The notes below the pieces were generated by a model. It was not told where the DNA came from, ran no database searches, and saw nothing but the letters and a program-made list of their open reading frames with translations. A program made the position numbers and the translations under genes. A DNA stretch of 64,000 bases, from positions 32,001 through 96,000 of IMG/VR virus record IMGVR_UViG_2671180089_000001; one strand, 5' to 3'. Position 1 is the stretch's first letter. Every line of letters starts with the position of its first letter. The stretch comes from a virus. Lineage: Duplodnaviria > Caudoviricetes. Positions 2,571-61,500 of the stretch are shown piece by piece.

Positions 2571-3113
2571 GTGGGTGACTGGTTCGGCGTCGGCTTGACC
2601 GACTACTACGACCCGGGCGACTGCCACACCGGCGACGTCTGGCACACCCCCGGGACGCCCGTACGCGCTGATGACGACTTCGTCTTCTTCTTCGACGAGC
2701 TCGGCCGCCGGCAGCCGGTGGAGCACTGGTCGGACCTGCTCTTTCAGTCGACTTGGTGGCAGGACGCCGAGCGGAGCATCTGGCGCCTGGACGAGCTCGA
2801 CGAGATGCGGTGCAGCCGGATCTACGGGTTCGCGGCCCGGCGCGAGGAGGAGACCGGCACGCTCCTCGCCTGGGAGGCGACTCGCGGGCCGGTGCCGAAC
2901 GGGGACGTGGCGTTCGACGCGTACGACCGTGGTCTGGGGCAGCTCCTGGACATGGTCGGTGAGCACGGGTGGATTCACCGCACTGAGCTGATGGTCGCCC
3001 TGCAGCGCCGCATGCGCGGGTGGCCCGCGATCGAGGGGACGTGCTTCTGCGGCTACCCCGTCGCCGAGGGCTGGGACCACGGCGCGTGCCACGCCGGAAT
3101 GGAGATCGCCTGA
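2571..3113 (+). CDS. hypothetical protein
   Basis: AGGAGG RBS before GTG 2571; 3' part of track ORF 1692..3113. Confidence 0.75.
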   Translation: MGDWFGVGLTDYYDPGDCHTGDVWHTPGTPVRADDDFVFFFDELGRRQPVEHWSDLLFQSTWWQDAERSIWRLDELDEMRCSRIYGFAARREEETGTLLAWEATRGPVPNGDVAFDAYDRGLGQLLDMVGEHGWIHRTELMVALQRRMRGWPAIEGTCFCGYPVAEGWDHGACHAGMEIA

Positions 3114-3162
3114 CAGCTGGCAACTCGGTGAACTGCCGTATGCTGCACACCAGTTTCATGCG

Positions 3163-3201
3163 CACGGAGGCCCGGCCACCAACATTGGCCGGGCCTCCGT
3201 G
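3163..3201. terminator. bidirectional stem-loop terminator
   Basis: 16-bp perfect stem cacggaggcccggcca/tggccgggcctccgtg between convergent genes. Confidence 0.8.
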
Positions 3202-3219
3202 TTATGCGGACGCTGAGCG

Positions 3220-4158
3220 CTACTTGAGCGCCTCTCTGGCGGCCTTCCTGGTGGCCTTCTCCGCCTCCTGCATCCGCTCGAGGACCGCGTCGTAAACGGT
3301 GGTGTCCTCCGGGTCGGCGAACGCCTCCATGAGCCGAAGGGTCACCTCCGAGCGGGAGATCCGGGGACGGTTGAGGGCGTCTGCGATCTTGATGGCGGTC
3401 CTGTCGACGGCCCGGGTCACCGCGGGCGGGATCGCGCGGGAGACCGGCGGCTGGATCTCCTCGACGAGCACGCCCTTGATGGTCTTCGCCAGGGCGTCGA
3501 CGTCCTCGTCCTCGTCGAGCTTGAGGTCGCCCGGCAGCATCTTGACGGTGTTGCGGAGCCGCTCGGCGGTGACCTGGTCCGGGCCCCAGGAGTCGGCGAC
3601 CAGGACGTACACCGCGACGGCCGCGTTCAGATTGAAGGCGTTTTTGACCGGGACGATCTCACGGACCTGACCGGGGTTGACGTCGTAGCTGCGAGCGGCG
3701 AGGACTTCTCCGATCGCCCAGCCGGCGCGCAGCTTGCTGCACTTGCCAACTGAGATGCCTTTCTCCAGGGGCGCCCACTCCTCGATGGTGCGGTAGGTCC
3801 GCTCCGGCTCTAGCTTGTGTGGGGTGTCCCGAAACAGCTTGCCAGTGGCGATGGTGTCGAGGGCTTTGCCCTGGATGAACCAGGCTGTGTTGCCCAGGTC
3901 GACGCCCTCGAGGCACTCCTCGTACCGCGTCCGTTCCTCGTCGGTGAGCGCGCCCTCCCCGGCGGGCTCGACCGGGTCGGGGATCTTGTGGAGGCCAGGT
4001 CGGGCCTCCTCGACGGCGGTTTCGACGGCCTTCTCTATGGTCGCCTGGCGGTCCGCTTCGACGGCCTTGGAGCCCTCGGCCAACTTGCCTTTGCCGCGGC
4101 GCCGGGCCGAGCCCCAGCTCGCGTCTTGCGCCCACGCCTCCTTCTTGTCGTCGCTCAC
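3220..4158 (-). CDS. putative partition protein, ParA partner (atypical ParB-like)
   Basis: GTG start overlaps the parA stop (GTGA coupling); 312 aa; no canonical GxxRxxA motif seen. Confidence 0.65.
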   Translation of the reverse strand: MSDDKKEAWAQDASWGSARRRGKGKLAEGSKAVEADRQATIEKAVETAVEEARPGLHKIPDPVEPAGEGALTDEERTRYEECLEGVDLGNTAWFIQGKALDTIATGKLFRDTPHKLEPERTYRTIEEWAPLEKGISVGKCSKLRAGWAIGEVLAARSYDVNPGQVREIVPVKNAFNLNAAVAVYVLVADSWGPDQVTAERLRNTVKMLPGDLKLDEDEDVDALAKTIKGVLVEEIQPPVSRAIPPAVTRAVDRTAIKIADALNRPRISRSEVTLRLMEAFADPEDTTVYDAVLERMQEAEKATRKAAREALK

Positions 4159-10179: not shown

Positions 10180-10728
10180 GTGCCTACACCTGCAAGGCGC
10201 TCAGCAGCAGTAACACCGCCGCTGACGGCCCGGCAGCGTCTTGCCCCCGTACCGCCTTCAGCGCCGTCGGACGACGTGCTGCGCGACATGGTCAAGGCGC
10301 TCGACAAAGTCGCGACCAACGGCGGGCTTATCAGCTCGGATCCGCCGAAGCGGCCGTACCAGTTCGCCAGCGGCCAGCACATCAGTCTCGACACTGACCT
10401 CCAGGCGAACCTTTGGCAGTTTGGTCTGTCGCCCATGGCCCGTGACCTGCTGGACCACATGGCCACCCACCATGACGACCGGGGCGAGTTGCTGACCACG
10501 CAGAAGAAGCTCGCGACGCACTTCGGGTGCTCGCAACCGAAGGTCAGCAAAGCCCTTACTCAACTCGATAAGCTGCATTTTGCCTGGAAGGTTCGCCGGG
10601 GGGTGCTGCAGGTGAACCCCACATACGCTTACCGGTGGGGCAGCAGGAAGCAGCGCGCCCTGATCGCACAACTCGGAGCGAAGTTCCTCCGGGAGCGCAC
10701 CATCGTGATTCCAGAGGCCGGGAGGTAG
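10180..10728 (+). CDS. RepL-like winged-helix replication/maintenance protein
   Basis: TQKKLATHFGCSQPKVSKALTQL HTH followed by LQVNPTYAYR. Confidence 0.65.
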   Translation: MPTPARRSAAVTPPLTARQRLAPVPPSAPSDDVLRDMVKALDKVATNGGLISSDPPKRPYQFASGQHISLDTDLQANLWQFGLSPMARDLLDHMATHHDDRGELLTTQKKLATHFGCSQPKVSKALTQLDKLHFAWKVRRGVLQVNPTYAYRWGSRKQRALIAQLGAKFLRERTIVIPEAGR

Positions 10729-10730
10729 TT

Positions 10731-11195
10731 GTGAGCACCGCGCTTGTCCGCAACCCCGATATGTTCGAGCGACTGCCTGACGCGAGTCTGGGCAAGACAG
10801 CCCGGGATGTCTTCGACATCCTCCAGGCTCGCCAGGAGCCGGCTGGCCTCGTCCGCATCTCACAGAAGCAGATCGCGGAGCGCCTGGGCATCACAGTGCC
10901 GTCAGTCTCCCGTGCCATAGGAGAGCTCAAGGACCGCGGGCTCGTCCACCCCCGGACCGTGCACGGCAAGGTCCAGATTCACCCACTGTTCGCGGCGTAC
11001 GAGTCGATGGCGCACATGGTGAACCATCTCAAGGAGGAGGGGACGCACCTATGGCCCCTGACCTTCCCCGGCAGGATGGTGCAGCTTCCGTCTGGAAATG
11101 ACCCGCGCGCGGGCACGTCCTTCGATCCGGACCCAGATGGAGGGGAGCCGGCGCCGCTGCCCGACGCAAAGCCTCCCCTGCGAATCGCAAGCTGA
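10731..11195 (+). CDS. winged-helix DNA-binding protein, paralogous to the upstream RepL-like gene
   Basis: SQKQIAERLGITVPSVSRAIGELKDRGLV...QIHPLFA; GGAGG RBS. Confidence 0.75.
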   Translation: MSTALVRNPDMFERLPDASLGKTARDVFDILQARQEPAGLVRISQKQIAERLGITVPSVSRAIGELKDRGLVHPRTVHGKVQIHPLFAAYESMAHMVNHLKEEGTHLWPLTFPGRMVQLPSGNDPRAGTSFDPDPDGGEPAPLPDAKPPLRIAS

Positions 11196-12039: not shown

Positions 12040-12312
12040 TCAGGCGAGGGTCGCGGCCGGCGTGCGCAGCTCCTCGACGACCCGCATCACGTAGAACCCG
12101 AGCCGATCGGGCTCCCGTCTCGTACGCAGGAGACCACGGCGCCGGCCGGTGCGGATGACCAGCCGCAACGTTTCACGAGGTAGCCCCACGTCTTCCACAT
12201 GCGCAGCCGCAGCCGCGGCCGGGATCCACTCCTCGTACGGGAATCTCATCAGGGCCGCGTAGAAGTTGACCGTGTCGGCGGCCGCAGGCGCGGGCGAGGC
12301 GTGCGAGGACAT
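12040..12312 (-). CDS. hypothetical protein (possible small winged helix)
   Basis: AAGGAG RBS, 90 aa. Confidence 0.65.
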   Translation of the reverse strand: MSSHASPAPAAADTVNFYAALMRFPYEEWIPAAAAAAHVEDVGLPRETLRLVIRTGRRRGLLRTRREPDRLGFYVMRVVEELRTPAATLA

Positions 12313-12562
12313 CGCGGGGTGCTCCTTCTCTTCGGGTTGGGCGCCCGCCGAGTTGCTCTCCCGACGCTCGCCTGCAAGGCGGAGATTACAGTAAGCCCAG
12401 GGAAATCTGCCATGGGGCCTCCGACCGGTGACTGGTACAACTTGGCCGGTTATGCTTCCCTCGCGCCACGCGGAAGACGATCCTCCTTTTCCCCGGTTGG
12501 GGGTTCTGGTCCATCGGGCCCGCCAGGGGGCGCTCAGACGGCATATGGGGGGACATCACGCC

Positions 12563-13243
12563 GTGACGGACAGCATCGCAAGCATTGACCAGCTCATCGC
12601 ACGAGCAGCCGCCGGTGGCTCAGACGCGCCGGAGGCCATGAGCGCCTTCTACGCGCGTCTCAACACCACGGTCTACAACTGGGTCCGCCAGTACGTGCGC
12701 GACCCGCACAAGGCCGAGGACCTCGCGCAAGAAGTTTGGATCAAAGTGGCTCAAAACGTGGGCCGTTACCGCCCGGGGACGAACCTCCTGGGCTGGCTGA
12801 TGACCATCACGCGGAACACCGCGGTCGACCACCTGCGCAAGGAACAGCGTCGCCCCACCGAAGTGCTCCAGCCTGATCACCTGCAGCTCGACCGGCCGCG
12901 GCCGGGCCTCTCCGTTCACGAGCAGACCGAGCGCCGGCAGCTCGCGACGGCCATGGTCCAGCGGATGAACGAGCTCAAGCCCGATCAGCGCACTTGCCTG
13001 CGGCTGCGTTTCTACGACGGCCTCAGTCCGGCGCATACTGCGGAGCTCATGGGCAAGACTGAGGGCGCGGTGCGCACCCTGACGGTACGGTCGTTGCGAC
13101 GGCTGGCCCAGGTGCTCCCGGAAGGGGACTCTTCCGCCGATCTGGTGGAGGAGCTGTTGAAGCTCGCGGCAGGCAGAGGAAAAGTTCACGGTGTTCGGGT
13201 CCAGACTTCACAGGAGAGGGCGCCCCATGTTGCAACGCGCTGA
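12563..13243 (+). CDS. ECF RNA polymerase sigma factor, BldN-like
   Basis: Region 2 AEDLAQEVW...GWLMTITRN; region 4 LKPDQRTCLRLRFYDGLS...TAELMGKTEGAVRTLTVRSLRRLAQVLP. Confidence 0.9.
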   Translation: MTDSIASIDQLIARAAAGGSDAPEAMSAFYARLNTTVYNWVRQYVRDPHKAEDLAQEVWIKVAQNVGRYRPGTNLLGWLMTITRNTAVDHLRKEQRRPTEVLQPDHLQLDRPRPGLSVHEQTERRQLATAMVQRMNELKPDQRTCLRLRFYDGLSPAHTAELMGKTEGAVRTLTVRSLRRLAQVLPEGDSSADLVEELLKLAAGRGKVHGVRVQTSQERAPHVATR

Positions 13244-13616
13244 CAGGGGAGCGGAGCGCCTCGAGCGTGCGCTCGAGGGCGGCCCGATCCCACACGACTC
13301 CGACACCCGCCGCGCCCTGGCGGCCGCAGGCGGCCTGACGCCGGGCCACGGGCGCAACCCTGCCCGCGTCCAGCAGACGCACGACGTGATGATGGCGGCC
13401 TTCATGCGGACCTTGAATCCGTCTGAGGCCCGCGACGACGCCGGCACCGACGACGGCCTGGAGGAGATGGAGCTCCACCGCACGGAAATCACGCTCCCCG
13501 ACGGCGGCCAGCTCGTGGTGTCCGACCTCGAGCAAATCACCCCCGAGCGGCTGGAAGAGGCCGCGCAGATGGCCGCCGAGATACTCGCGCGTAGGGCGAA
13601 GGACCACCACAGTTGA
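13227..13616 (+). CDS. putative anti-sigma factor (resembles the RsbN N-terminal domain)
   Basis: Overlaps the sigma gene; AGGAG RBS; helical N-terminus RGAERLERALE...RALAAAGGL. Confidence 0.5.
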   Translation: MLQRADRGAERLERALEGGPIPHDSDTRRALAAAGGLTPGHGRNPARVQQTHDVMMAAFMRTLNPSEARDDAGTDDGLEEMELHRTEITLPDGGQLVVSDLEQITPERLEEAAQMAAEILARRAKDHHS

Positions 13617-15175
13617 GCAGCCCTACCGACAAGCTCGACATCGTCGTGGGGGAATTCCCCACCGATGCGATGCTGTGCAATCTCAACGGCGTGCGCACCC
13701 TGTTCCTGGGGGTGGACCAGACGTTCGGCCGGGCCGTGAGCAACGTGCGCAACGTACTGCCGGGCATCACCGTCGAGGCCGCCGAACGGATGGTTCGCGA
13801 GCAGGCCCCGGAGCTACGGGACTTCGACGAGCTGCTCGGGCGGACCGATCCCGTCCCGCCCAGCGTTGAGGGGCCCGCCGCCGCCCTGGTGGACGACGCC
13901 GTCAGGGAGCAGCTCCCGCGCGGTGCCGCCAAGCGTCGCCGGAGGGCTGTCCTCGTCGCCGCGCTGCTGCCCGCCCTCGCTGCAAGCTGGGCGGTAGGCC
14001 GGTACACGAACATCGACGACGCCACATCGACGACCGCAGCCAGCGCGCCGGACGCCTCACCGAGTCTGGCTGATGCCGACGTGGTGAAGGCACCCTTCGC
14101 CGACCCCCAATTCAAGTGGTTCAGCGGGTCGAGCGAGATCGTGTGCGACCCGATAAACGCACTTGAGGCGGAGTGCACCGACTCCGACGGCATAGTGATG
14201 GCGACGAAGGCCGCGACCGGTCCGGACTCGACGATCTTCACGTTCTCGTACGGCAGCGAACGCATCGGCCTGCGGATCTTCTACGACGCCAAGTACGCGG
14301 CAACCTGGGCTAAGCAAGACGGCTCCCGAGAGCTGTACCCGAACATGCGGACCCACGACCGGTACATCCTGTGGGGCACGGACCCCGACCGGATCAGGGA
14401 GTACAACGACCTCCTGGAGGACGCGGACAAGACGTCCGGGCCGACCGCGATGGGCGGCGCCACGCCGCTGCCGCCGCGGCTGGCCGCGCTCACGCTGGGC
14501 ACGCTCGGACTGGACGACCACGAGGTGACGCAGATCATCGCCGCCCCCCAGGCGGCGCCGACTGACACTCCCACCCTGCTCGCCGCCCGCCTGGTGCTGG
14601 GTCTGGACAGCACACCCACCTGGCCCGAGCCGGGCGACGACGACATCGTGGCACTCGCGGCCGGGATCGAGCCGAACCCGCCGACCACGTCTCCCTCCGG
14701 AGGCGGCACGTCCATGGTGGTGCCGGTCGTCGAGCCGGACGTATCCGTCACGCCCACGGCGTCGGCGGGCGGTTCGGAAACGGACACCACGCCTTCCGGC
14801 GGAGGGACAGGGACGTCCCCGACGTCGCCTCCGGTGACCGATCCGACGCCGAACGATCCCGAGCCGTCCACCCCCACCACGCCGACTCCACCCCCGGTGA
14901 CGGACCCGACGCCGAGTGGCCCCAAGACGACGCCTCCGGTGACGGACCCGACGCCGAGTGTTCCCAAGCCGACACCGCCGGCCACCGAGCAGCCGCCGCC
15001 GGCCGAGGAGACTCCGCCGCCCGTGGAGGAGACTCCGCCGCCTGTCGAAACCCCGGCGCCGCCAGTGGAGGAGACTCCGCCCACGGGGCAGGACGGAACC
15101 ATTCCGGCCGGGCCGGAGGAGAGCGGGGACGACCTGCTGATCCTGGACTCAGCCTGGACCGTCTCAGCCGCATGA
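13613..15175 (+). CDS. single-pass membrane protein with Pro/Thr-rich C-terminal repeats
   Basis: KRRRRAVLVAALLPALAASWAV TM segment; PPVTDPTP and PPVEETP repeats; start overlaps the upstream stop. Confidence 0.8.
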   Translation: MSSPTDKLDIVVGEFPTDAMLCNLNGVRTLFLGVDQTFGRAVSNVRNVLPGITVEAAERMVREQAPELRDFDELLGRTDPVPPSVEGPAAALVDDAVREQLPRGAAKRRRRAVLVAALLPALAASWAVGRYTNIDDATSTTAASAPDASPSLADADVVKAPFADPQFKWFSGSSEIVCDPINALEAECTDSDGIVMATKAATGPDSTIFTFSYGSERIGLRIFYDAKYAATWAKQDGSRELYPNMRTHDRYILWGTDPDRIREYNDLLEDADKTSGPTAMGGATPLPPRLAALTLGTLGLDDHEVTQIIAAPQAAPTDTPTLLAARLVLGLDSTPTWPEPGDDDIVALAAGIEPNPPTTSPSGGGTSMVVPVVEPDVSVTPTASAGGSETDTTPSGGGTGTSPTSPPVTDPTPNDPEPSTPTTPTPPPVTDPTPSGPKTTPPVTDPTPSVPKPTPPATEQPPPAEETPPPVEETPPPVETPAPPVEETPPTGQDGTIPAGPEESGDDLLILDSAWTVSAA

Positions 15176-15180
15176 GACAA

Positions 15181-15216
15181 GCGAAGGGCCCCGGACATCA
15201 GTCCGGGGCCCTTCGC
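15181..15216. terminator. bidirectional terminator
   Basis: 16-bp perfect stem gcgaagggccccggac / gtccggggcccttcgc between convergent genes. Confidence 0.85.
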
Positions 15217-15226
15217 GTGCCTGGTG

Positions 15227-15676
15227 TCAGAACGGCGGCTCTTGGGTCGCCCACGGATCGTCGACGGTCGGCCCCTGTGCGGCGGCCGCGGCCGGGCGCT
15301 GCCCACCGCCGCCCGTCGTCTTGGTGACCCGGGCCGTGGCGTTGCGCAGGCTCGGGCCGACCTCCTCAACGTCGAGTTCGTACACGGTGCGCTTGACGCC
15401 CTCACGGTCCTCGTAGGAGCGCTGCTTGAGGCGCCCCTGGACGATGACCCGCATGCCCCGCTGGAGGGACTCGGCCACGTTCTCGGCCGCCTGCCGCCAG
15501 ACCGAGCAGGTGAGGAACAGGCCTTCGCCGTCCTTCCATTCGTTGGTCTGCCGGTCGAAGGTGCGCGGGGTCGAGGCGACGCGGAACTTGGCCACCGCGG
15601 CGCCGGAGGGAGTGAAGCGGAGTTCGGGGTCGTCAACCAGGTTGCCTACGACGGTGATAACGGTCTCGCCTGCCAC
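15227..15676 (-). CDS. ssb: single-stranded DNA-binding protein
   Basis: [38 protein letters not shown] ... DDPW..EPPF, actinobacterial SSB. Confidence 0.97.
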
Positions 15677-15734: not shown

Positions 15735-16787
15735 TCAGGAAAACAGGAGCTTCCAGGTCAGCGGGCCGGGGATGCCGTCGGCGTCGCCCTTGAGGGAGGC
15801 ATGCGCGAGCTGGAAGTCGCGGACGTTCTTCCGATCCGAGTCCGACCACTTCGGCCCCGGGCCCGAGGTGTAGTGCTTGCCGTAGCCCTTCCGGACGAGC
15901 TGCTGTCCGAGCAGGGTGATGGACGCATTGCTCTTGCCAGGGCCGAACTTGCCGACGCCGGGGAACGGCGGGGCCGGCTTCGCCGTGACCTTGCCCGGCA
16001 GGGTGCCCAGAAGCTCCTTGAGGGAGGTCACGCCCGGGACGCCATCCGCGTCCGCACCGCTGTAGCCGAGGGACTCCTGATAGTCCTGGTAGTTCCTCGT
16101 GTCCGCGTCAGTCCACGTCGGACCCGGGCCCGACGTGTAGTGCTTGCCGAACCCCTTCTTCACCAGGGCCCGGCCGACCTTGGTTACGTGGTCGCCCTTG
16201 GCGCCGTAGCCGTACGTCAGGTCGCTGATGGTGACCTGGGCACGGGAGACCTCGGAGCCGCCACTCGGAAGGGAGCCGCCCGGGTTCGGGGCCGCCTCGT
16301 AGTTCCCGGCCGGCATGCCCGCCTTGACCCAGGCGTACAGCTTGGTGCCGGGGCAGGCGGTCGCGAAGCCGTCCCGGTGGCCGCGCTTGGCCAGGGTGCG
16401 GCCGGTCTTCTTGCCTGCCTCCTCGTACAGCGCGCGGCATGCGGCCAGGGCCTTCGCGCTGGGCTCCTGGTCGCCGCCGATGGCGAACTGGACGCCGATG
16501 CCAGTGGTGTTGTGGTCGGGACAGTGGGCGCCCTGCAGGCCCCAGCCACGGCCCTCGTAGATGTTGCCGGCCTGGTCGATGACGAAGTTGTAGCCGACGC
16601 CGCTCCAGCCGTTGCCCAGGTGCTCCGCCTCGATGGCGCGCATGATCGCGTACCCGGTGCGGGTGATGTGGTGGGCTCCGTCGTAGTGGACGTAGAACTC
16701 GGTGCGCTTGGACAGCGGGACGGATGCCGGGGTGCCGTTCCACGGCTTCGCGCCCCAGGTGGCGCGGGAGATGATCTTTAGAGTCAT
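15735..16787 (-). CDS. endolysin: PGRP/Amidase_2 N-acetylmuramoyl-L-alanine amidase with two cell-wall-binding repeats
   Basis: [24 protein letters not shown]...GAH, GHRD...TACPG; two [10 protein letters not shown] repeats. Confidence 0.93.
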
Positions 16788-16823
16788 GGGGTGGTGCCCT
16801 CCACTTGTTGATCGGTGGAGGGC

Positions 16824-16852
16824 ACCGTGCAGGGCGCGGCCGGTTAACGTCG
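16824..16852 (-). promoter_or_regulatory. late promoter motif (endolysin)
   Basis: CGACGTTA-N15-CACGGT. Confidence 0.7.
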
Positions 16853-16868
16853 CGCGCTGCCGGGAGGA

Positions 16869-18415: not shown

Positions 18416-18599
18416 CGTGCTCCACAAAGCATTTCCCTGGGTGTACTATTCGGAGTGGCTGGGAGAGCAACCCAGCTACCTGGGCCTAGGTGTAACAAAT
18501 TTCGGCCGGTGACGTACCTCCATACGACGCCCCGAAGACACCCCGCCCGGGACAACCCGAATCCTGGGCCTGGCGTCCGGGGAAGAGAGGAACACCGAG

Positions 18600-31624: not shown

Positions 31625-31632
31625 GGCGCGGG

Positions 31633-31661
31633 ATGGTCAACGGCCCGGGTGGTTAGTGTCG
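31633..31661 (-). promoter_or_regulatory. late promoter motif (near-leaderless)
   Basis: CGACACTA-N15-GACCAT, 8 nt before the ATG. Confidence 0.7.
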
Positions 31662-31669
31662 CGTCCTGG

Positions 31670-32884
31670 TTAGTAGTGGAAGCTGTCGGACCGTTTTAGG
31701 GCCAGGGTGATGAAGCCGTCGGCGCTGATCTCGTCACTGATGATGCGGTGCCACACATCGACGTCGCCGACCCACGGCACGTGCACCTGGACGCGGATGT
31801 CGTCGCCGAGGGCCCAGGAACCGAACTTGGCGTTGGGGTGGTCGACGATCTGTATGGCGGGGATCTGCAGGGCGGCGGTGCGGCCGGCGAGTTCCTGCTG
31901 ACCGCGCTTGCGCAGCGCCGTGGCGGAGGACAGCTTTTTGTCCGTCACCGTTGCCACCCGGCGCATGCGCCGGTTCGCCCAGGTTGCAATGTCGCTGACC
32001 TGGGCGCGCTTCATCTTGTGGCCCTCGCCCTTGCCCAAGACCATGACCTCGTTGGCGTAGTCGCCGCCCATCCCTTCCGGCTTGGCGATGGCGACGATGT
32101 TCTCCCCCTGCGCGAACCGGAGATCGGTGCGCTTCCGGCCGAGACGGGGAGTCCCCAGTCTCAGCCGGTGGGTGATGTTGTTGCTCGTCGAGTTCTCCCA
32201 GGCGTGCGTCTCGATCCAGTCGAACATGTACTGATTGACCAGGGTGTCGAGGGTCTGGCCGCAGTCGGGGTTATCCCACCAGGCGAGTTCCCATGGGTCC
32301 TCACCGTCGGCCGTTCCGAGCAGTTCCCCCTTGTTGTGGGTGTCAATGTCCAGGCCGATGTTCCCGAGGGGCTTGCCCTGGACGTGCGCCCAGATTCTGC
32401 GGAAGGCGTCGTAGACGTCGATCCGTGGGCCGGCGTACGGCTTCGGCGGCGCGGGGACCTTCTTCTTCGGTTTCGATCCGTCGATGTACCCGTCATGATT
32501 CTTGTCTTTTCCGGCATACGGATCTTTCGGGGTGATCTTCATACCGGAGATGATGTAGTTCTCAAACGGGATGCCGTGCGCGTACGTCGAGAACCCCTCG
32601 CAGGACACCGTGGCCTGCGCCCCGTCGTACGCGGTCTTGGTGACGATGCCTCCCCACCGGATCGCTCCGTCGATCTCGAGGTACAACTTCGTTCCCCACT
32701 CCTGCAGGATGGGGTCTCCGTCCGCGCCGATCATCCGGGCGTACTCCGGATCGATGGTCCCGACCATGGCGCCTGGACCCGACAGGTCCCGCTTCGGGTT
32801 CGAGGACAGCGTGAACGGCACCTGCCAGTCCAGAACGGTCTCTGTGAGCGCGCTCTGCGCGATGAATCGCCAACCGACCGGCAC
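31670..32884 (-). CDS. minor tail protein (Gp37-like / baseplate hub)
   Basis: LSGPG, IRWGGI, RLGRKRTDLRFAQGENI, ANEV..LGKGEG. Confidence 0.8.
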   Translation of the reverse strand: MPVGWRFIAQSALTETVLDWQVPFTLSSNPKRDLSGPGAMVGTIDPEYARMIGADGDPILQEWGTKLYLEIDGAIRWGGIVTKTAYDGAQATVSCEGFSTYAHGIPFENYIISGMKITPKDPYAGKDKNHDGYIDGSKPKKKVPAPPKPYAGPRIDVYDAFRRIWAHVQGKPLGNIGLDIDTHNKGELLGTADGEDPWELAWWDNPDCGQTLDTLVNQYMFDWIETHAWENSTSNNITHRLRLGTPRLGRKRTDLRFAQGENIVAIAKPEGMGGDYANEVMVLGKGEGHKMKRAQVSDIATWANRRMRRVATVTDKKLSSATALRKRGQQELAGRTAALQIPAIQIVDHPNAKFGSWALGDDIRVQVHVPWVGDVDVWHRIISDEISADGFITLALKRSDSFHY

Positions 32885-33865: not shown

Positions 33866-33900
33866 CTCGTATCTCCTCTGCTGGTCCTGGTGGACAGCGG

Positions 33901-33929
33901 AGGATCACGGGCCCGGAGCGCTAACGTCG
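33901..33929 (-). promoter_or_regulatory. late promoter motif
   Basis: CGACGTTA-N15-GATCCT. Confidence 0.7.
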
Positions 33930-33939
33930 CGTCCTGGCC

Positions 33940-40724: not shown

Positions 40725-40763
40725 GGCGGGCTTCTCCTTGGTGTCCGGTGGTGGGGCGCGGAC

Positions 40764-40792
40764 ACCTTGGAGAGCCGAAGTGGTTAACGTCG
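40764..40792 (-). promoter_or_regulatory. late promoter motif (major tail)
   Basis: CGACGTTA-N15-CAAGGT. Confidence 0.7.
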
Positions 40793-40797
40793 CGTCG

Positions 40798-49059: not shown

Positions 49060-49141
49060 TTGGGGTGCTCTCCCTGTGCTGGGTGCGGTTGACGTGCGTC
49101 GCTCGCCCGGCCAGCACCGGGACGCCTCAACGCGAGGCGTG

Positions 49142-49170
49142 ATGAAAGAGAAGGAGAGGGGTTAACGTCG
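49142..49170 (-). promoter_or_regulatory. late promoter motif (capsid; deviant -10)
   Basis: CGACGTTA-N15-TTTCAT. Confidence 0.5.
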
Positions 49171-49171
49171 C

Positions 49172-52520: not shown

Positions 52521-55500
52521 TTACCTGGTGGCCATCAGGCCCAGGAGGAACGCGCGCAAGTCGTCGTCCTGGTACCAATCGCCGTTGAACATCGCCTGCA
52601 CGGACCGAGCGAGGGTGTCACCGGTCTCCGGTTGTGTCTGCTGCCGTCGCAGGAGCCGGTCTATCGCGCTCGGCCGCATCCGGCGTGCGCCGGGCCGGCC
52701 GGTGTGCGTCTGGCCGAACCAGAACGCCCGTTGCGCGGCGTCCAGGTCGCCGAGGTGGCGGGCGAAGTGCTGCGCCAGGGCGTGCCCGGCGGTGCCCAGT
52801 CCCTCGTCGGCGAGGTCGGCGACCGTCACCCGCTGCCCTTCCGGCTCGTAGCGGCCCTGGTTGCCGTTCAGAGCGGTCATGCGACGCGCTTCGGGGGTGT
52901 TGAGCCACGCGCGCGGGATGAGGCGCTGCACGCCCCGTACGGCGCGCTCGGCGTCCGGGTCGGTACCTGGGCCGAACACGATTGCGTTGGCGCCGTCCGG
53001 GCCCATGTCTCGGACGTCGGCCAGTGCGGCGGCCACGGCGTCGGGCACTGCGGCGGCGTACCGGGCCCGCAGGTCCTCGTACTCCCGGCGGGCGGACGCA
53101 AGCTCGCTACGGGCCGCGGTGATCTCGATCTCCAGGTCTTCGTCGTCCGGGATGGTCGCGCCGCTGCGGGCCGCTTGGAGGTTGACCACGCGCCGCTCAC
53201 TGGCCGCAACGTAATCGTCGGCGTGCTGCAGCGTGGCGTGCGGATCGTCGCCGAAGTCGTCACCGAGCACGGCGGACAGACGACGGGTCACGTCCTGGTC
53301 GACGTCGTTGCCGGCTGCCCGCAGCGCCGCCATGTGGCGAAGCGTGGTCAGGCCGGGCCCGCCATCGGCCGCCCTGTCCGGCGCCCACTGGACGCGGTCC
53401 GACCGGTCCGGAAGACGGCCCGCTGCGAGCTGCCCCCACGTCGTCGGACGCCAGAAGGTGACACGGCGCTGCGACTGACCGAACCGGCCAGGCTCCGGCA
53501 TGAGTCCGGCCCAGTGGGAGATCCGCGCGGCCAACGAGTCGCCGTCCGCGTCAGGCAGGTTCACCGCGCGGTGCAGGCGCGCCAGGCGGCGCGACTCCGG
53601 CAACTCCCGGACACGGCGGACCATGCGACCCAGGAACGCACGAAGACGGCGCAGGCGCTCGCGTGAGCTGCGGTACTTCTCGGCGATCTTTCGGGCGCCG
53701 GCCTTCACCAGCTCGGCGAGGCGCTTGGCCATCCGGACCAGGAAGGCGACGATCCGGGCCAGGAGGCCCGGCTGCCGTCCGGCGTCCGGGTTCGCCGCGG
53801 CAACCTGGGCCGCGATCCGGCGGGCGGTCGCCTGCCGAGAGCCGGCCATCTGCTGGGTGAGGATCCGGGCGAGCCGTTCCGCGTCGCCCGGATCCACCCC
53901 GGCGGCCTGGAGCTGCTGCAGGAGAGCGTTCACCGCGTCGTCTGCGTGGCCCGTGACGGCGGTCGTGACGTCCGGGTCGGCGTCCGGGTCCGTCGTCGAC
54001 GGGCGGCCGGCGATCTGGTCCGGAATGAGGCGGAGCAGGTCCCGGGCGCGGGCGGCCAAGTCCTCGTTGCTCTCCCCGTCCAGGGGCTCGAGGTCGTTGA
54101 TGGTCCGCAGGGCCGCGCGCACGGTGTCCGCGTGCGCCTGGTTGCGGGCGTCGCGGAGACGACGCTGGGCGGCCCCCCGGTCCCGCCCGGTGAGGCCCGT
54201 AGCGTCGAGTGCGGCGGAACCGTCGCCGCGGACGGCCTGGCGTGCGTCGCGCAGGGCCTCAGCGGTGAGGCGCTGCGCGATCTGATCCCGCAGGGCATGG
54301 ATGTCGCCGGGGGGCTCCGTACCTGCGATGGCCTCGTCGATGATCCGCGCGGCAAGTGCTCGTCCGTGGTCGCTGACGATCCGGTCGACGTCGCCCTGTG
54401 CGGCCTGGTTGGGGTCGCGGGGTACGCCGGCCGGGGGCAGGGCAGGGGTGGGCCGGTTGCGGTCGTAGACGTTCACGGCGCGGCCGCTGTGCAGACCGAA
54501 GTCGTGCACGTTGCCGTCCTCGTCCATGCCGGTGAGCTGCATCCACCAGCCGTTGCGGTGCGGTTCGCTGATGATGGTGAGCCGCCGGTGGCCGTTGAAC
54601 TGGTAGCCGGTCCGGCTGACCGGCGCGTCGATGACGTCGCCGACCCGAAGGCTTCCCGGGCGGACATGGGCAATGGGCGCCGTGGGCTCGTCGGGTGTAG
54701 CCGCCGGGTCCGGAGTGGTCGGTGCGACGGGAGTGGTCGGCGCGGCGGCGGGGTCGCTGCCCACACGGCGCACCGGGCCGCCAGGGGGGTTGGGCCCGGG
54801 CCCGCCTTCGGCATCCGGCGCGCCGTCGGCGTCGTCGACGTCCGGCGGGTTGACGGGGTCCGGCTCGGCCTCGGGGAGCTGCCATACCGGCATGGCTCCG
54901 TGGACAACTCGGCGGCGCCACTGCTGGTCTTCGTCCTCCAGGAGGAAGCTGCGCACGCCCCCAGGGCCGTTCTCAACGTCGATGACACGGAAGACGCGCA
55001 TCTGGTCGCCTCGGCGCTCGTCGGGCATGGCCACCAGGTCCCCCTCGCCGATCTGCGCGGCGTTCGCCGGGCGGGGCCGGTCGAGGCCCGCCGGAGGGGT
55101 CCGACCGGCGGCGCGGTCGAGGTGGTCCGCGGCCCGCAGCGCAGCGCGGCCCTCGACCGTCGTGGGGTCCGCGGCCGCGCGCAACTGCGCGGCCAAGGCC
55201 GCGGCCTGCTCGCGGGTGACGGGCAGGTCGGCGGTGATCCGTACGGCGGCCTGCTGGGCGTCGGGGTCGTCCTCCGGCCCATCGGCGTGGTCTCCGATGA
55301 GGTTCCGGTCGCTCGAATCGAGGTCCGGGTCGAGGGTCGGGCCGGTCACCGGGTCCACGCGGCGCGGGGCGGGGTGCACGGTCAGATCCTCATCCGGCTC
55401 GGGGGCGTCGTCCGGGCCGAGGTCCGGGGCGCCTCCGTCCGGGCCCTGGGCGCGCGGGAGGATCGCGCGGGCGTCGACGTTGATCTCGCCCATCTCGCCG

Positions 55501-58500
55501 GTGGTGGTGTCGGCGTACTGCAGGGTGACGCGGTCTCCGTCCCGGCTGGGCGGGCTGGTGATCGCAACGGTGGCCAGATGGCCGTCGAGGTCCAGGAGGA
55601 CGACGTCGCCGTCCTTGAGGTCCGCGGCCGCGGGCTCGTCGATGCCGGTCACCGGCGCGGTGTCGGGCGCCTCGTCGCGCACCTCCCCGGTGACACGGAG
55701 GTCCCCGGCGCTGCGGGTGATCGTGCCGTCGGTCGTGGTGATGGTGACGTTGTCGCCGTCGACGTCGTCGACGGGGCCGAGGAGTCCTCCGTCTGTGTCG
55801 CTGACGACGTTCTGGGTCGTCACGCGGTGCCCGTCGGCGGTCCAGCCGTCGGGGCGCTGTCCGTCGGCGACGGACAGGGTGGTGGGCGACAGTGCGGTGT
55901 CGTCGTTGCCGTCGGACCAGTGCACCGACACGGTGGTGTCGGTGGCGCCCGTGACGGTGCCCTCGCGGTCACCGGTCCCCGTGACGGTGCTGCCGGGGAA
56001 CAGGCCGCGGCCGTCGCGGTCCGCCGGGATCTGGTTGGGCAGGTCACCGGAGCGGAGCGCGGCCTGGGCGCCGCTGGCCGGGGAGCCAGGCACGACGTCG
56101 TCCGGTGCTTCCGCGCGTGCCGCGGTGGCGTTGGCGGACGTGTAGACGTTGCCGCTCGCGCCGGTGCCGTCCGAATTCTCCGTGACCCAGGTGCGCCACA
56201 TCTGCTCGGTGCGGCCGCGTCGGGTGACGTCGACCAGTACGGGCGCGGTGTGGACGTAGCCGGCGCGCTGAACCGGCCGACCGCCCTTGGTGGTGCCGCT
56301 CATGCGGACCATGTCGCCCGGCACCAGGTCCTCTACGCGGGCCCAGTGCGCTGGCTGGCCGTCGATCGGCTCGGGGTCCGGTTCGGGCGTGGGCTCGGCC
56401 TGCGGGCGCGGGGTGTCCTCCGGGGCGTTCACCGGCTCGTCCGGCGCCGGGACGGCGGGGGACGGCGCGTTGCTGTCGCCCTGCGGCTCATCGTCGCCGC
56501 GGGGCGGCTGCCGGTCACCATCCGGATCGTTGCCGTGGGGCCGCTGACGGTCGCTCTCCGGATCTCCGAGGCCGTCGAGGAGTCGTCCGGCCCAGTAGGA
56601 GCGGTTCTTGAGTCGGCTGCGCTGTCGCTCTGTTCTCCTGGTGGCGGGCAGGAGATCATGCAGCCGTGCGAAGTCGTCGCGGGCCTGCACCAGGTCGTCC
56701 CGCAGGTTCCCGCTCGGGGACCGATGGTCGCGGAAGGCGTCTAGCAAGGCGGACAGCCGGTCGTGCCGGTCGCGTACCTCGGGGTTATCGAGGAGCGACT
56801 CCGGCAGCTCCCACATCCTGTCTGCCAGGTGCGCAGTAACCGTGCGCCAGACGTCCTCACTCGGGTTCGTGGGGTCCACGGGGCCGTCCCTCAGGGCGCG
56901 AACGACGAGGTTCGCGATGGCCGTGTCACGGCTCTCGGAACGGCTGCTCTGGTCGTTGTCCGGGCCGAAGAACGGTCGTGCGTGCCATACCGAATTCCGG
57001 TTGGGATCCGACCGGTAAACGTTGGAGATGTGGCCAATCTGCTGGCCATCGAGCCACACGGTCTCGCCGTCGCCGACAGGGCGCAGCTCGGCCCGGTCGG
57101 CGAACTCCCGCATTTTGTCGTGGCCGCCGAACCGGAACGTGGCGGCTTCCGCGCTCTCAACATCCCCGGACGGTGCGGGGGCGACGTCGTCGGCCGTGAA
57201 GGTGACCGTGTCTTCGGAATCTCCGGCTTCGTCCGCGCGGCGCTGCTCCTCCTCGTGAAGGTCGCGGGCAGTACGTTCGTTATCGCGGCGCGACTGCTTG
57301 AACTGGTTGAAGGTGAGGCGGCCGCCGTTCGCGTCGAACCAGTCCTGCAGTTCTTCGCTCGCGACGTCCTTCCACCGATCGAACTGGGACATGCTCCCGC
57401 CAGAGAACAGCTCCCGCTCGTCGATCGGTCCGGCCTCGTGCTGTCGGCGGAAGAAGTACCCGTTGGTGGCGGCGATAGCAGCCAGGTAGCGGGCCTCGTC
57501 GATGTCCGCGAACTCGGCGCGCAGGGCACGGTCGGCTTCCCGCTGCCGGTACTGCGTGTACGTGAGCCGGCCGTTTCCGGGGGTCTCGTCGTCGCCGTCG
57601 AACCAGTGGTTCAGTTCCGGCGAGGCGAGTTCCTTCGCACGCTTGTTGCTGTACTTGCCGCCGGAGAACAGGGTCCGCGGGTCGATGCCTTGGGCCTCGG
57701 CCTCGGGGCTGAGCATGCGCCCGCCGGTGGCCTGCATGGCTGCCTGGAAACGCTCCTCGTCGAGGGCGTCGAACTCTCGGCGCAGACCTCCGGGGGTAAC
57801 CGGAGCGGGCTGCGTGACGTCCGTGTCACCGAAGCCGAGCGCCTCGTCCATCAGGCGGCCCTCGCGCTCCGCCTCGTCGGCGTTCGCCGGGGGTGTCTCG
57901 GGCACCGCAGCGCGGATCCGCTCGTCGACGTAGCCATCGCGGCGGTCCATCTCCGCCATGACGCGAAGCTCGTCCTCCGGGCCCAGACCCTGCACGTACG
58001 CGGCCTCGAGCTGGGAGTCGTCCAGGGTGGTGAGGTCCTCGGGCAGGGCAAAGGCACCTGCCCGTTCCTGGTCGTAGTCGTCCTGTACCGCGCGGAGCGC
58101 CTGGGGCAGGTTCCGGCCCTCCCCGTCACGCCAGGCGGCGACACTGGCCGATCGGCCGCCCTCCACGTCCCAGTCGAAGGGGTCGCCGTTGCGGTCGGTG
58201 AGCTCCTCGAAACGTCCGGCGAGTGCCCGCGCCTCCTCGGGGTCATCGGAGGTCAGGGTGATGCCAGGCAGGTTCGTTCCGTTGCGGGCCTGGGCGAAGC
58301 GCCACACGGTGTTGCCGTCGTCCTGCCGCTCCGGGTAGGTCGCCAAGCCGCCATTGGGCGACAGGGCGAGGCCTTCCCTGTCTGCCAGGGCAGACAGGTG
58401 GGCACGACGCTCGGGGGTGTCCTCGCCAGGGGTGAGGCCGTCGCCGGTACGCCACGCGTTGCGCAGGGAGTCCACGTCGCGGTGACGGGCGCGGGGACGC

Positions 58501-61500
58501 GGGGAGCGGCCGCGGCCGTTCGCGGCGTCGCCGTCTCCGTGACCACCGTTTCCGTCGCCACCGTCTCCGCCTCCGGCGCCGTCCGGGGCGTTGAAGTCGG
58601 GCAGGCGCAGGCGCGGCAGTCCCGGTCCACCCGGTCCGCCCGGTCCGCCCCCGCCGGGTCCTCCGTTGCCGCCCCTGCGGTTACGGCGGCGCCGACGCCG
58701 GCGGCGCCGCTCGTCCTCGCTCTCCTCGTCCCCCTCGTCGGTGTCGTCCTCGTCCTCGGGGACGTCCTGGTCGTCGTCTCCGCCTTCGGGGCCGTCGGCG
58801 TCGTCGCCCTGGTCGCCGTTCGAGTCGCCGCCGTCGCCCGGTGCCCCGGGCGCGCCCGCCCCTCCGGTGTCGGGTTCGCCGTCGGGGTCGGTGGCATCTC
58901 CGTCCGGATCCGCGTCACGGCGCTGACGGCGGCTTTCCTCGTCGCCCTGGCGCTGCGCGTCCTCGCCCTGGTCGTCCTCGCCCTCCGGGGCCTGGTCCTC
59001 GTCCTGGCCGTTCTGCTGGTCGTCGTCCTCGCTGTCCGGGGTGCTGGTCGTATCGTTCCGGTCACTGTTGGACTCGCCGTCGGGGCCGTTGCCGTCGTCG
59101 TCCTGGCGCTCGTCGTCGCCGAGGCGTTCGTCGCGGTCGTCCTGCTCGCCGCGCGCGATGCGGGCCGCGCGTCGGAACCGATCGGCTGCAAGCTCGCCCT
59201 GCGGCCCGGCGAGCTCGTACTGCTCGGCGAGCGCGTCCATGCGGTCAGCGACGTCGCGGAGCTCCGCGTCCCGGTCGTCGGCCGAGTCGGCGCGGCCCAG
59301 GCGGTCGTCGAGCTCCTGCATCTCCGGCAGCGAGTCGCCGCCCACGGCGTTCATGCCCTCGCCGAACAGACCCCTGGCACGGTGGGCACGGTCCTCGTCG
59401 GGAGCGCTCGGCGCGTCCGGGGTCGGGGCGTCCGGGTCCGGCGCGTCCGGGCCGTTGGTGTCCCCGCCGGTGTTCTGAAAGTCCGGATACCGAAGGTCGC
59501 GTTCGGCCTTCATCCGGGCTGCGGTGGCCCAGGACCTGGTTCTGCGCGTCTCGTACGGCAGCTCAAGGTCCGGGTCGTCGAACTGGCTCTCCAGCCACGC
59601 GGCCTCGTCACGGATCTGGCGGAGGTCACCCTGCAGATCGTCCGTCTCACCCCGGCTGACGCGCTGGATGAGGTCCTGCAGACGCTGGATGCGCTCCGGG
59701 TCCTGGAGGCCTTCCCTGCGCTGCAGGGTGGCGACGTCGTCGCCGATGTCGGCCATGCGAGTTCGAAGTTCGTGTCGCCACGCCGGGGTCGGCTCGGGAC
59801 GCGTGCGGTCGTTGGCCCAGGCGAAGGTGTCGCCGGGGTGGCTCAGGAAGACAGGGCTGATGCTGGAGCGGGAGCCGTCGAGGTTGGAGACGGACAGGAC
59901 CATCGTCCCGTTGTCGTTCCGGTTCACGCTGTTCACGCGGACCGGCTGCCTCCAGCCGACGGGGTAAGGGCGGCCGTTGCCGTCCTGCCTGGTGACCGGC
60001 ACGCGGATGATGTCGTTCTCAGCCACGTCGCCACGATCGCCGAGGGCCCATCCTTCGGGGGCCGCGCTGCGGGCCCGCTCCCGCCGGGCGTCCTCGTCGG
60101 CGTTCTCGCGGCGGACGTCGCGGTTGCGGACGAGCGCGGCCACGGCCTCCGCGCGGCTCGGGTAGTGGTCGGGGGAACCCTGGCCGTCAGCGTTGGTGTA
60201 CCGCCACTTGCGGGCGAGCTGGCCGACGGTGCCGGCGTCCTTGCCGTCGACGGTCACCGGGTATGCGCCGTCCTCGTTTCGCTTGCCGATCTCGGCGCGC
60301 GCGAGTGCTTCGGTGCGCTCCTGCTTCTTCTTCTCCTTCTCCTCTCGGTCTCGGCGGGTGTTGTCGCGGTTGCGCTGTTCCTCGTTCAGTACGTGGCGGC
60401 GGTTGGCGACAGGGGAGAGCGCGACCACGGCATTGCCCTGGATGCGTGGTCCTTCCCCGTTGCTGGAGACGTGCCGGCTCTGCCACGCCTGCAGTTCCTC
60501 GAGTTCCTCCTTGATGTCGTCGTCGGTCATGTCCGCCGGCGACGTCTCACGGATGGGGGCGTCGGGCGCGGTACGGGGCGCCTCCGGCGCGCTTGAGGCG
60601 TCGGGAGCGCCCGGGGCGGCCGCGGCTTCGGGACTCTCGGGGGTAGGAGCGACTTCGGGGCTGTCCGGGGCGCCGTGGGCGAAGAGGTCCGGCGTGCCAA
60701 GCTCGTCGTCCGGCCGGGGCCGGTTCTGATCTTGGTGCGCGGTCGGGCGTTCGTCCTGCCCGAAGTCGTCCGGGCGCATCTGGCGCCAGTCCATGCCACC
60801 ACCGGCCTCGGAGCGGTCCGGCTCCGGCACGGTGCCGGGCTTGGACGCTCCGAACGTGGCGTCGGTCCGGGGCACATCGAGCTCGACGTCCTCGCCGTCA
60901 CGGCTGCCGGTGATGTGGAGATGGCCCATGTCACCGCGGCGGATCTCGGAGACCTGGAGCGGCTCCGACCAGCCGGTCACGGTGCGAACGCGGGCGCCCT
61001 CCAGGCGTCCGAGCTCGGGCACGCGGATGGTGTCGCCCGGCTGGACGTCGTCCCATGCCGAGTGTTTCCAGTCCTCCCCGGCACGCTGGTTCCGCCGGTC
61101 GGTGAGCTTGTTGAGGGCGGTGATGGCGGCTGCGCGGCTCGTGTACTTCTCGCTGGTCGGGGTGCGTCCGTCGCGGTCGACGAACACCCACTTCCCCTTC
61201 GTGTCCTTGTAGACGGCGCCGATGAGCGTGCCGTCGCGGCCCTGGACCTGTTCACCCTTGAGGCGGGCGAGGCGGGCGGGGTCGCGGACGAGACCGGCTC
61301 GCTCACGGCGGCTTACCTCGTCGCGGTGACGGGCGAAAGTCCGCTCGGACTGGGCATCGTTCAGGGCACGGATACGGGCGGTGACCTGGCGGCGCACGGC
61401 GCGGGCCGCCGGGTCGTTGCCCTCGGGCAGGGTGGCGCCGCGCAGGTGGGCGAGCTCCGCGGTGATCTGCTCGTCCCGCATGCTCTTGGGGTCGTCGGCA

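Follow-up and report, generated by a model that had tools for sequence, protein, structure and literature searches.

A BldN-related sigma factor and a likely RsbN-type partner form a candidate late-gene switch in probable Streptomyces phage-plasmids

The window analysed here, a 64,000-nucleotide (nt) stretch of DNA (positions 32,001 to 96,000 of the virus record IMGVR_UViG_2671180089_000001), carries three overlapping genes encoding an extracytoplasmic function (ECF) sigma factor, a soluble protein of 129 amino acids and a single-pass membrane protein of 520 amino acids. The evidence leans towards this trio being an operon of a Gilgamesh-like temperate phage-plasmid in which a sigma factor for late genes is held by a soluble anti-sigma factor of the RsbN type. 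Host RNA polymerase would probably transcribe the operon, starting at a conserved promoter of host type, and the sigma factor would then direct core RNA polymerase to late promoters of the form GCGACGTTAAC-N16-(G/C)(G/A)T(G/C), which lie ahead of the genes for lysin, capsid, tail and giant proteins and of the portal operon. The 129-amino-acid protein would be the cognate anti-sigma factor, its three helices clamping regions 2 and 4 of the sigma factor as RsbN clamps the sigma factor BldN. With such a clamp, late genes would stay off while the phage is merely carried, or would come on later in an infection. The membrane protein would most likely tether or release the anti-sigma factor through an extra C-terminal domain of the 129-amino-acid protein.

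The three genes lie on the same strand and overlap. A sequence-only reading of this DNA had described an ECF sigma factor gene, an overlapping 129-amino-acid gene and a coupled gene for a single-pass, Pro-rich protein, and all three are present where it had placed them:

12563-13243, plus strand: ECF sigma factor gene (226 amino acids; GTG start, with GGGGGGA just before the start)
13227-13616, plus strand: gene for the 129-amino-acid soluble protein (ATG start 17 nt ahead of the sigma factor stop at 13243)
13613-15175, plus strand: gene for the 520-amino-acid single-pass membrane protein (TTG start overlapping the stop of the 129-amino-acid gene, TTGA)

This arrangement is conserved. Gene order and overlaps are kept in all nine related loci, including the 17-nt overlap between the first two genes, and the GTG start and ribosome-binding site of the sigma factor gene are conserved in all ten aligned elements. 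The source record is a 126,324-bp virus, estimated to be 97% complete and classed as linear. Of 50,697 phage records, a single one represents a cultured relative, Streptomyces phage Gilgamesh (MN234216, 129 kb). Its genes 92, 91 and 90 are the counterparts of the trio, ordered and overlapping in the same way, and their products are 82%, 78% and 57-58% identical, respectively, to the proteins described here. Gene 92 is annotated as 'RNA polymerase sigma factor' and genes 91 and 90 only as hypothetical proteins; among the papers searched, none on the trio was found.

The Gilgamesh genome further includes genes for ParA, ParB, an FtsK-like protein and two tyrosine integrases, and the sigma factor also turns up on three Streptomyces records of complete plasmids, 125-130 kb long, of which the one examined is circular and carries the trio. 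These plasmid records and Gilgamesh genes suggest that the element family consists of temperate phage-plasmids. In the protein collection, about 85 clusters of the sigma factor have 54% identity or more, followed by a gap down to 37% or less. Phage Gilgamesh itself excepted, all named clusters are from Streptomyces; a hand count of these 85 close clusters places about 33 on contigs 110-136 kb long and 17 on those longer than 150 kb. On the related plasmid CP108533.1 (positions 2895-3439 of locus L101), a gene annotated as a PemK/MazF toxin and a small gene upstream of it lie near the sigma factor operon, which fits plasmid-style maintenance.

The sigma factor is an ECF (group 4) protein, with regions 2 and 4 and no region 3. 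It matches the Pfam models Sigma70_r2 (71.1 bits) and Sigma70_r4_2 (45 bits), and scores 99.8 bits with the generic ECF model TIGR02937, well above the cut-off of 42.9. Region 2 spans residues ~30-97 and region 4 residues ~131-181; they are followed by a conserved C-terminal extension of about 40 residues (187-226). No other gene in the whole 126-kb record scores above threshold as a member of the sigma-70 family. The likeness to BldN, first noticed from a region 4 string that does occur in the translation, is real: the closest solved structure is the BldN chain of the RsbN–BldN complex (6dxo_A; E 3.5e-21, 79.1 bits, the next best match scoring 53.7 bits), with 28 of 59 region 4 residues identical by hand count. 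Compared with BldN of an element-carrying host, the identity is 37% over 189 amino acids (E 1e-29). In each of five element-carrying Streptomyces genomes, only the true BldN (259.6-263.5 bits) scores higher with the BldN model than the element sigma factor does (95.5-101.1 bits); the other matches listed reach 78.9 bits at most.

The likeness stops short of orthology. With the BldN equivalog model TIGR02952, the sigma factor scores 98.8 bits against a curated cut-off of 206.45. A published account of BldN orthologues (PMC4255298) takes as its criterion an identity well over 50% together with local synteny; the element protein has 37% identity, a phage gene neighbourhood and a clade of its own. 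In a tree of 50 rows, the element sigma factors form one clade (support 100/99) and BldN another (100/100); the two fall within a shared, weakly supported group (92/64) and are not sisters. Forcing them into a joint clade costs 11.07 log-likelihood units, with a p value of 0.188 in the approximately unbiased test, so that a joint clade is neither rejected nor shown. A captured BldN orthologue, or a recent capture of host bldN, is rejected on the basis of the 37% identity, the score of 98.8 against 206.45 bits and the separate clade. Of the proposed captured BldN-like sigma factor, what stands is a BldN-related protein encoded by the element. On these sequence comparisons, the protein belongs to a phage lineage of ECF sigma factors and is a distant relative of BldN.

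Both proteins have regions 2 and 4 only, and directly downstream of bldN lies rsbN and of the element gene a probable RsbN-type gene. They differ at their ends: the conserved C-terminal extension is found in the element sigma factor and not in BldN, whereas the host BldN open reading frames (ORFs) have about 85 residues before the conserved core, an extension that the element sigma factor lacks, its region 2 beginning at about residue 30. BldN is made as a proprotein, and this extension would be its cleaved N-terminal pro-region. The surroundings differ as well. Host bldN adjoins a phosphatase gene, whereas the element sigma factor gene lies between early genes and genes for a single-stranded DNA-binding protein (SSB) and lysin; the opposite-strand neighbours of the trio encode the SSB, the lysin A amidase, the small terminase and a ParB-like protein.

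The second protein of the trio is modelled by AlphaFold2 with three N-terminal helices (residues 4-16, 25-33 and 45-63), a β-hairpin (84-100) and a further helix (106-126), at a predicted local distance difference test score (pLDDT) of 72.7 and a predicted template modelling score of 0.30; no membrane helix is predicted. HMMER scanning gave 53 representative relatives, nearly all of 97-144 amino acids and matched from end to end. Ten remote family members were looked at, one of which is in a cluster named for Tenggerimyces flavus. When a 34-row profile of this family was aligned with 41 RsbN N-termini using hhalign, a score of 25.5 was obtained (P 0.0013), placing residues 12-70 on residues 13-85 of RsbN in one co-linear match, helix for helix with the three-helix anti-sigma region. 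The reversed profile scored 9.0, and shuffling, 100 times by column and 100 times by block, never gave 25.5, the highest scores being 16.2 and 21.5, respectively. As had been proposed from the letters alone, the resemblance is to RsbN's cytoplasmic N-terminal anti-sigma part only, and it is seen with the deeper profile.

The same profile leads to RsbN itself. Among 401 actinomycete genomes searched at E ≤ 1e-4, it matched nine, one being the element itself; in the other eight, the match is the N-terminal segment of a long ORF. Seven of these eight ORFs lie directly downstream of a BldN-family sigma factor gene (184.5-219.8 bits; four of the seven above the cut-off), and DUF5667, which RsbN likewise bears, was found in all six bldN-adjacent ORFs tested. 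These ORFs are RsbN orthologues. Earlier work states that rsbN adjoins most bldN orthologues (a 2013 review) and that RsbN homologues occur only in Streptomyces and are always membrane-bound (the 2018 RsbN structure paper). In actinomycete genomes of 3.0-4.0 Mb (L175-L181), we observe bldN–rsbN pairs with the same upstream phosphatase-like gene; the small size of these genomes suggests genera other than Streptomyces.

The alignment also covers the residues by which RsbN binds its target. According to the structural study (PMC6101532), mutagenesis identified RsbN F14, L50 and L70 as essential for BldN binding; they align with L12, L37 and M55 of the 129-amino-acid protein, which are invariant or at least 90% conserved hydrophobic positions in its family. 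The three BldN-binding helices are co-linear with the N-terminal ~65 residues of a protein whose gene, like rsbN, lies directly downstream of that for the sigma factor. Beyond these helices the two diverge. RsbN, the founding member of its structural class, is a membrane protein with a single membrane helix and an extracytoplasmic DUF5667 domain, whereas the 129-amino-acid protein is soluble, has neither, belongs to a free-standing family of ~130 amino acids and ends in a β-hairpin and helix domain unrelated to RsbN. Remote homology to the anti-sigma domain of RsbN is likely, and we infer that the protein is an inhibitor, that is, an anti-sigma factor, of the element sigma factor.

Several results weigh against this assignment. 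The hhalign probability of the RsbN match is 18%, a weak similarity; neither BLASTP nor a search of Protein Data Bank (PDB) sequences matched the protein to RsbN, and a shallow 26-row family alignment gave no hhalign match to five RsbN sequences (nor to 41 full-length RsbN sequences). The salt bridge between RsbN R67 and BldN E11/D20 is not kept, the aligned residues being H52 and G19/A31; the position aligned with Arg67 is not conserved. The monomer model has no fold match (best Z 4.3). Other searches were equally silent: the best feature score in the ESM Atlas was 0.78, with no named family; viral-contig scans with the 129-amino-acid protein and with one remote member found none; and Pfam, NCBIfam, PHROGs and PADLOC hold no family for the 129- or the 520-amino-acid protein, the only loose match being DUF7744 (E 0.2). 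With both proteins, a PDB sequence search gave nothing below E 0.45.

The 520-amino-acid protein was modelled over residues 1-355 (AlphaFold2, pLDDT 73.5). It has a confidently modelled cytoplasmic β-β-β-α-α domain (residues 8-74), one predicted membrane helix (104-131), a confidently modelled extracytoplasmic α/β domain (~167-330) with two invariant cysteines and a variable Pro/Thr-rich tail, followed by a conserved C-terminal DDLLILDSAWTV motif. It aligns with RsbN at the membrane helices alone (E 0.09), and a 'split RsbN', in which the two proteins would be the soluble and membrane parts of one anti-sigma factor, is not supported at the sequence level. Its overall layout parallels that of RsbN minus the anti-sigma domain, a parallel of architecture only. 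Foldseek gave no match at E ≤ 0.001, and the best VIA match (Z 4.4) shows no clear fold relative. Among the weak VIA matches, residues 167-280 align with many lipid-binding domains of the START/Bet v 1-like kind, which we record as a weak lead.

These data bear on the possibility that the 129-amino-acid protein is not the inhibitor at all: it might be a sigma factor co-factor or chaperone, or unrelated, the real anti-sigma function residing in the cytoplasmic domain of the 520-amino-acid protein or in the C-terminal extension of the sigma factor. That extension is conserved over about 40 residues, the RsbN similarity of the 129-amino-acid protein is weak, and the topology of the 520-amino-acid protein is anti-sigma-like, with about 100 cytoplasmic residues before one membrane helix, a layout matching that of RsbN (PMC6101532). 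However, the cytoplasmic domain is predicted to be β-β-β-α-α rather than a helical anti-sigma domain, the protein has no RsbN similarity beyond its membrane helix, and it is the profile of the 129-amino-acid family that retrieves true RsbN orthologues. We therefore consider this possibility unlikely.

A motif search over the whole phage placed GCGACGTTAAC ahead of late genes on the minus strand. There are seven sites, including two variants, and they precede the genes for lysin A, the 1070-, 325- and 277-amino-acid proteins, the major capsid protein and a 3914-amino-acid giant protein, and the portal operon. All seven are intergenic and co-oriented with late genes and are taken as candidate promoters, five of them being:

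16823-16853, minus strand: candidate promoter before lysin A (GCGACGTTAAC, 16 nt, GGTG)
31632-31662, minus strand: variant site before the 1070-amino-acid gene (GCGACACTAAC, 16 nt, CATC, 7 nt, ATG)
33900-33930, minus strand: variant site before the 325-amino-acid gene (GCGACGTTAGC, 16 nt, CCTC)
40763-40793, minus strand: site before the 277-amino-acid gene, which follows the tail terminator gene in Gilgamesh (GCGACGTTAAC, 16 nt, GGTG)
49141-49171, minus strand: site before the major capsid protein gene (GCGACGTTAAC, 16 nt, CATC)

The window contains five motif matches with at most one mismatch against 0.74 expected, a number that none of 100 shuffles reached. Gilgamesh has five exact copies, before the capsid gene, gene 64, gene 71, the ParB/small-terminase genes and the lysin genes, at positions syntenic with those in this phage. 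The lysin site is kept, with a variable spacer, in seven of the eight loci that reach the lysin gene; the other (L008) has no pattern match. In five host genomes (~45 Mb), 16 of 18 exact copies are on the element contig, each on one strand. Across 29 element sites, the -10 block found 16 nt after GCGACGTTAAC is GGTG in 16, CATC in four, GGTC in two, CATA in two and one of five other sequences once each, and the base 19 nt after the -35 block, the third of the 4-mer, is T in 28. Nine of the 29 have a start codon 6-7 nt downstream of the -10 block, which fits leaderless transcripts, and the geometry of the variant site at 31632-31662 suggests that the transcript of the 1070-amino-acid gene is leaderless. 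The giant gene, a minus-strand ORF at 52521-64000 that extends to genome position 96265 and is syntenic with Gilgamesh gene 48 (4624 amino acids, hypothetical), likewise appears leaderless, its start lying directly after a motif site.

The motif resembles the promoter of the closest relative of the sigma factor. In PMC2375139, the BldN promoter is given as CGTAAC-N16-CGTTGA, and we find a CGTAAC-N17-CGTTG site in all four host bldN–rsbN spacers. Like the BldN promoter, the candidate phage promoter has TAAC, a spacer of 16 nt and a -10 block of the (C/G)GT type, which makes the motif a candidate BldN-like ECF promoter with an extended -35 block of its own; the element sigma factor would read it.

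Here, too, there are points on the other side. The -10 block is short and variable across the 29 sites, these sites are not independent because they are orthologous copies in about nine site classes, and this phage has a degenerate site before the ParB/small-terminase genes. It is also conceivable that one of the element's many helix-turn-helix proteins binds the 11-bp block; GCGACGTTAAC would then be the target of a different phage regulator, acting as activator or antiterminator, with the sigma factor controlling a different and smaller set of genes. This alternative gains from the length of the conserved block, which exceeds that of a typical ECF -35 element, from the abundance of helix-turn-helix proteins and from the purely inferential nature of the link between sigma factor and motif. 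It is nevertheless improbable: the motif lacks symmetry and in every case runs in the direction of the gene behind it, T recurs at a fixed spacing in 28 of 29 sites, start codons follow the -10 block by 6-7 nt in nine of 29, the motif resembles the promoter of the sigma factor's closest relative, and the 126-kb record has no other sigma-70-family gene above threshold.

Additional repeats and sites were noted. Two plus-strand sites outside the window (genome positions 114206, CGTAAC-N17-CGTTCG, and 116503, CGTAAC-N17-CGTACT) are intergenic, co-oriented and nearer to the host BldN consensus; with 12 CGTAAC copies, chance alone would give about 0.7 such sites, so they are not significant. The lysin A leader (16787-16830, minus strand) contains an inverted repeat, GGTGCCCTCCAC ... 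GTGGAGGGCACC, running from the putative -10 block over the GGAGGG ribosome-binding site, and the motif site at 40763-40793 is followed by a repeat of the same kind, GGTGTCCG ... CGGACACC. Dyad counting over the whole genome with genes unmasked was dominated by codon bias.

The expression signals of the trio itself are of a different type. Two conserved elements lie upstream of the sigma factor gene:

12428-12456, plus strand: putative host-type (sigma-70/HrdB-like) operon promoter (GTGACT, 17-nt spacer, TATGCT)
12470-12486, plus strand: leader element GCGGAAGACGATCCTCC (17 nt), in the presumed 5' leader of the sigma factor gene, identical in all ten elements

Among the ten aligned elements, GTGAC(T/G), the 17-nt spacer and TATGCT are invariant or nearly so amid variable flanks; a strict scan of 12250-15400 for sigma-70 promoters and terminators returned no sites and did not call this putative promoter. 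The CCUCC within GCGGAAGACGATCCTCC could pair with the GGGGGG ribosome-binding site, as it does in five of ten single-sequence folds, and a consensus fold of the leader RNA shows no covariation. The leader element may occlude the ribosome-binding site of the sigma factor gene.

A second intergenic motif recurs in seven clear copies, reading towards the gene as ATTTCCCTTGGTGTACTATTC followed by a conserved leader with GGAGAG. Copies lie at 12384-12406 and ~18418-18438 (minus strand) in the window and at genome positions 6315, 15112, 22016, 22110 and 31292 outside it, at the heads of divergent, probably early, operons; that at 12384-12406 faces a leftward 90-amino-acid gene (12040-12312) and not the sigma factor gene. 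Further upstream of the trio (10180-11195), two overlapping winged-helix genes with weak RepL and replication-initiator-like matches may be part of a replication or immunity region.

We also weighed interference with host development. The sigma factor might fire host BldN-type promoters (those of chaplins, rodlins, bldM and rsbN), or the 129-amino-acid protein might block host BldN and aerial growth, favouring phage spread. The closest host relative of the sigma factor is BldN, the candidate phage promoter and the BldN promoter have TAAC-N16-sGT in common, the 129-amino-acid protein is probably homologous to the BldN-binding part of RsbN, and BldN-dependent development is described in PMC10117723 as limiting plaque spread in S. 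venezuelae. However, the sigma factor is only 37% identical to BldN and its recognition helix differs, the full 11-mer is nearly absent from host chromosomes (two of 18 copies off the element), and the 129-amino-acid gene is translationally coupled to the phage sigma factor gene in nine of nine loci, a coupling that points to the phage sigma factor as the target of its product. We regard host interference as quite unlikely. The sequence-only reading had left the role between altering host differentiation and timing phage genes: for the former, a developmental hijack, we have neither evidence nor direct support, and the latter fits best because an element-specific motif of ECF promoter type precedes late genes. 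The sigma factor and the 129-amino-acid protein thus most likely switch on phage late genes.

A more elaborate scheme would have a BldN/RsbN-derived pair rebuilt in Streptomyces phage-plasmids as a membrane-gated switch, in which the free anti-sigma factor docks on a sensor of new fold and an envelope or developmental cue releases the sigma factor for lysis and virion genes, while the 129-amino-acid protein also cross-inhibits host BldN and blocks the aerial development that otherwise contains phage spread; we hold this to be decidedly doubtful. A role as a defence system is rejected, as PADLOC gives no match.

Late transcription by a phage sigma factor has precedents in gp28 and gp33/34 of Bacillus phage SPO1, which switches to phage-encoded sigma factors, and in T4 gp55. 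There, a phage-borne sigma factor redirects host core RNA polymerase to phage promoters, as the element sigma factor would do before structural and lysis genes. Unlike those proteins, it is a bona fide ECF sigma factor, is accompanied by an adjacent anti-sigma-like gene and a membrane protein gene, and belongs to what is probably a temperate phage-plasmid.

The trio would represent a second form of the RsbN class, in which the anti-sigma-type domain exists as a free-standing family paired with a BldN-related sigma factor in a widespread, probable phage-plasmid. With the 34-row profile built from this family, RsbN orthologues next to bldN were also retrieved from actinomycete genomes whose size, 3.0-4.0 Mb, suggests genera other than Streptomyces. 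The proposed regulon is testable: it comprises a sigma factor, a candidate anti-sigma factor and about seven candidate promoters of defined geometry, and Gilgamesh grows on S. lividans. As the candidate promoter resembles that of BldN, cross-talk between phage late transcription and Streptomyces development can be tested directly. If it is orthogonal to host sigma factors, the pair of sigma factor and 129-amino-acid protein could serve as an expression switch in Streptomyces.

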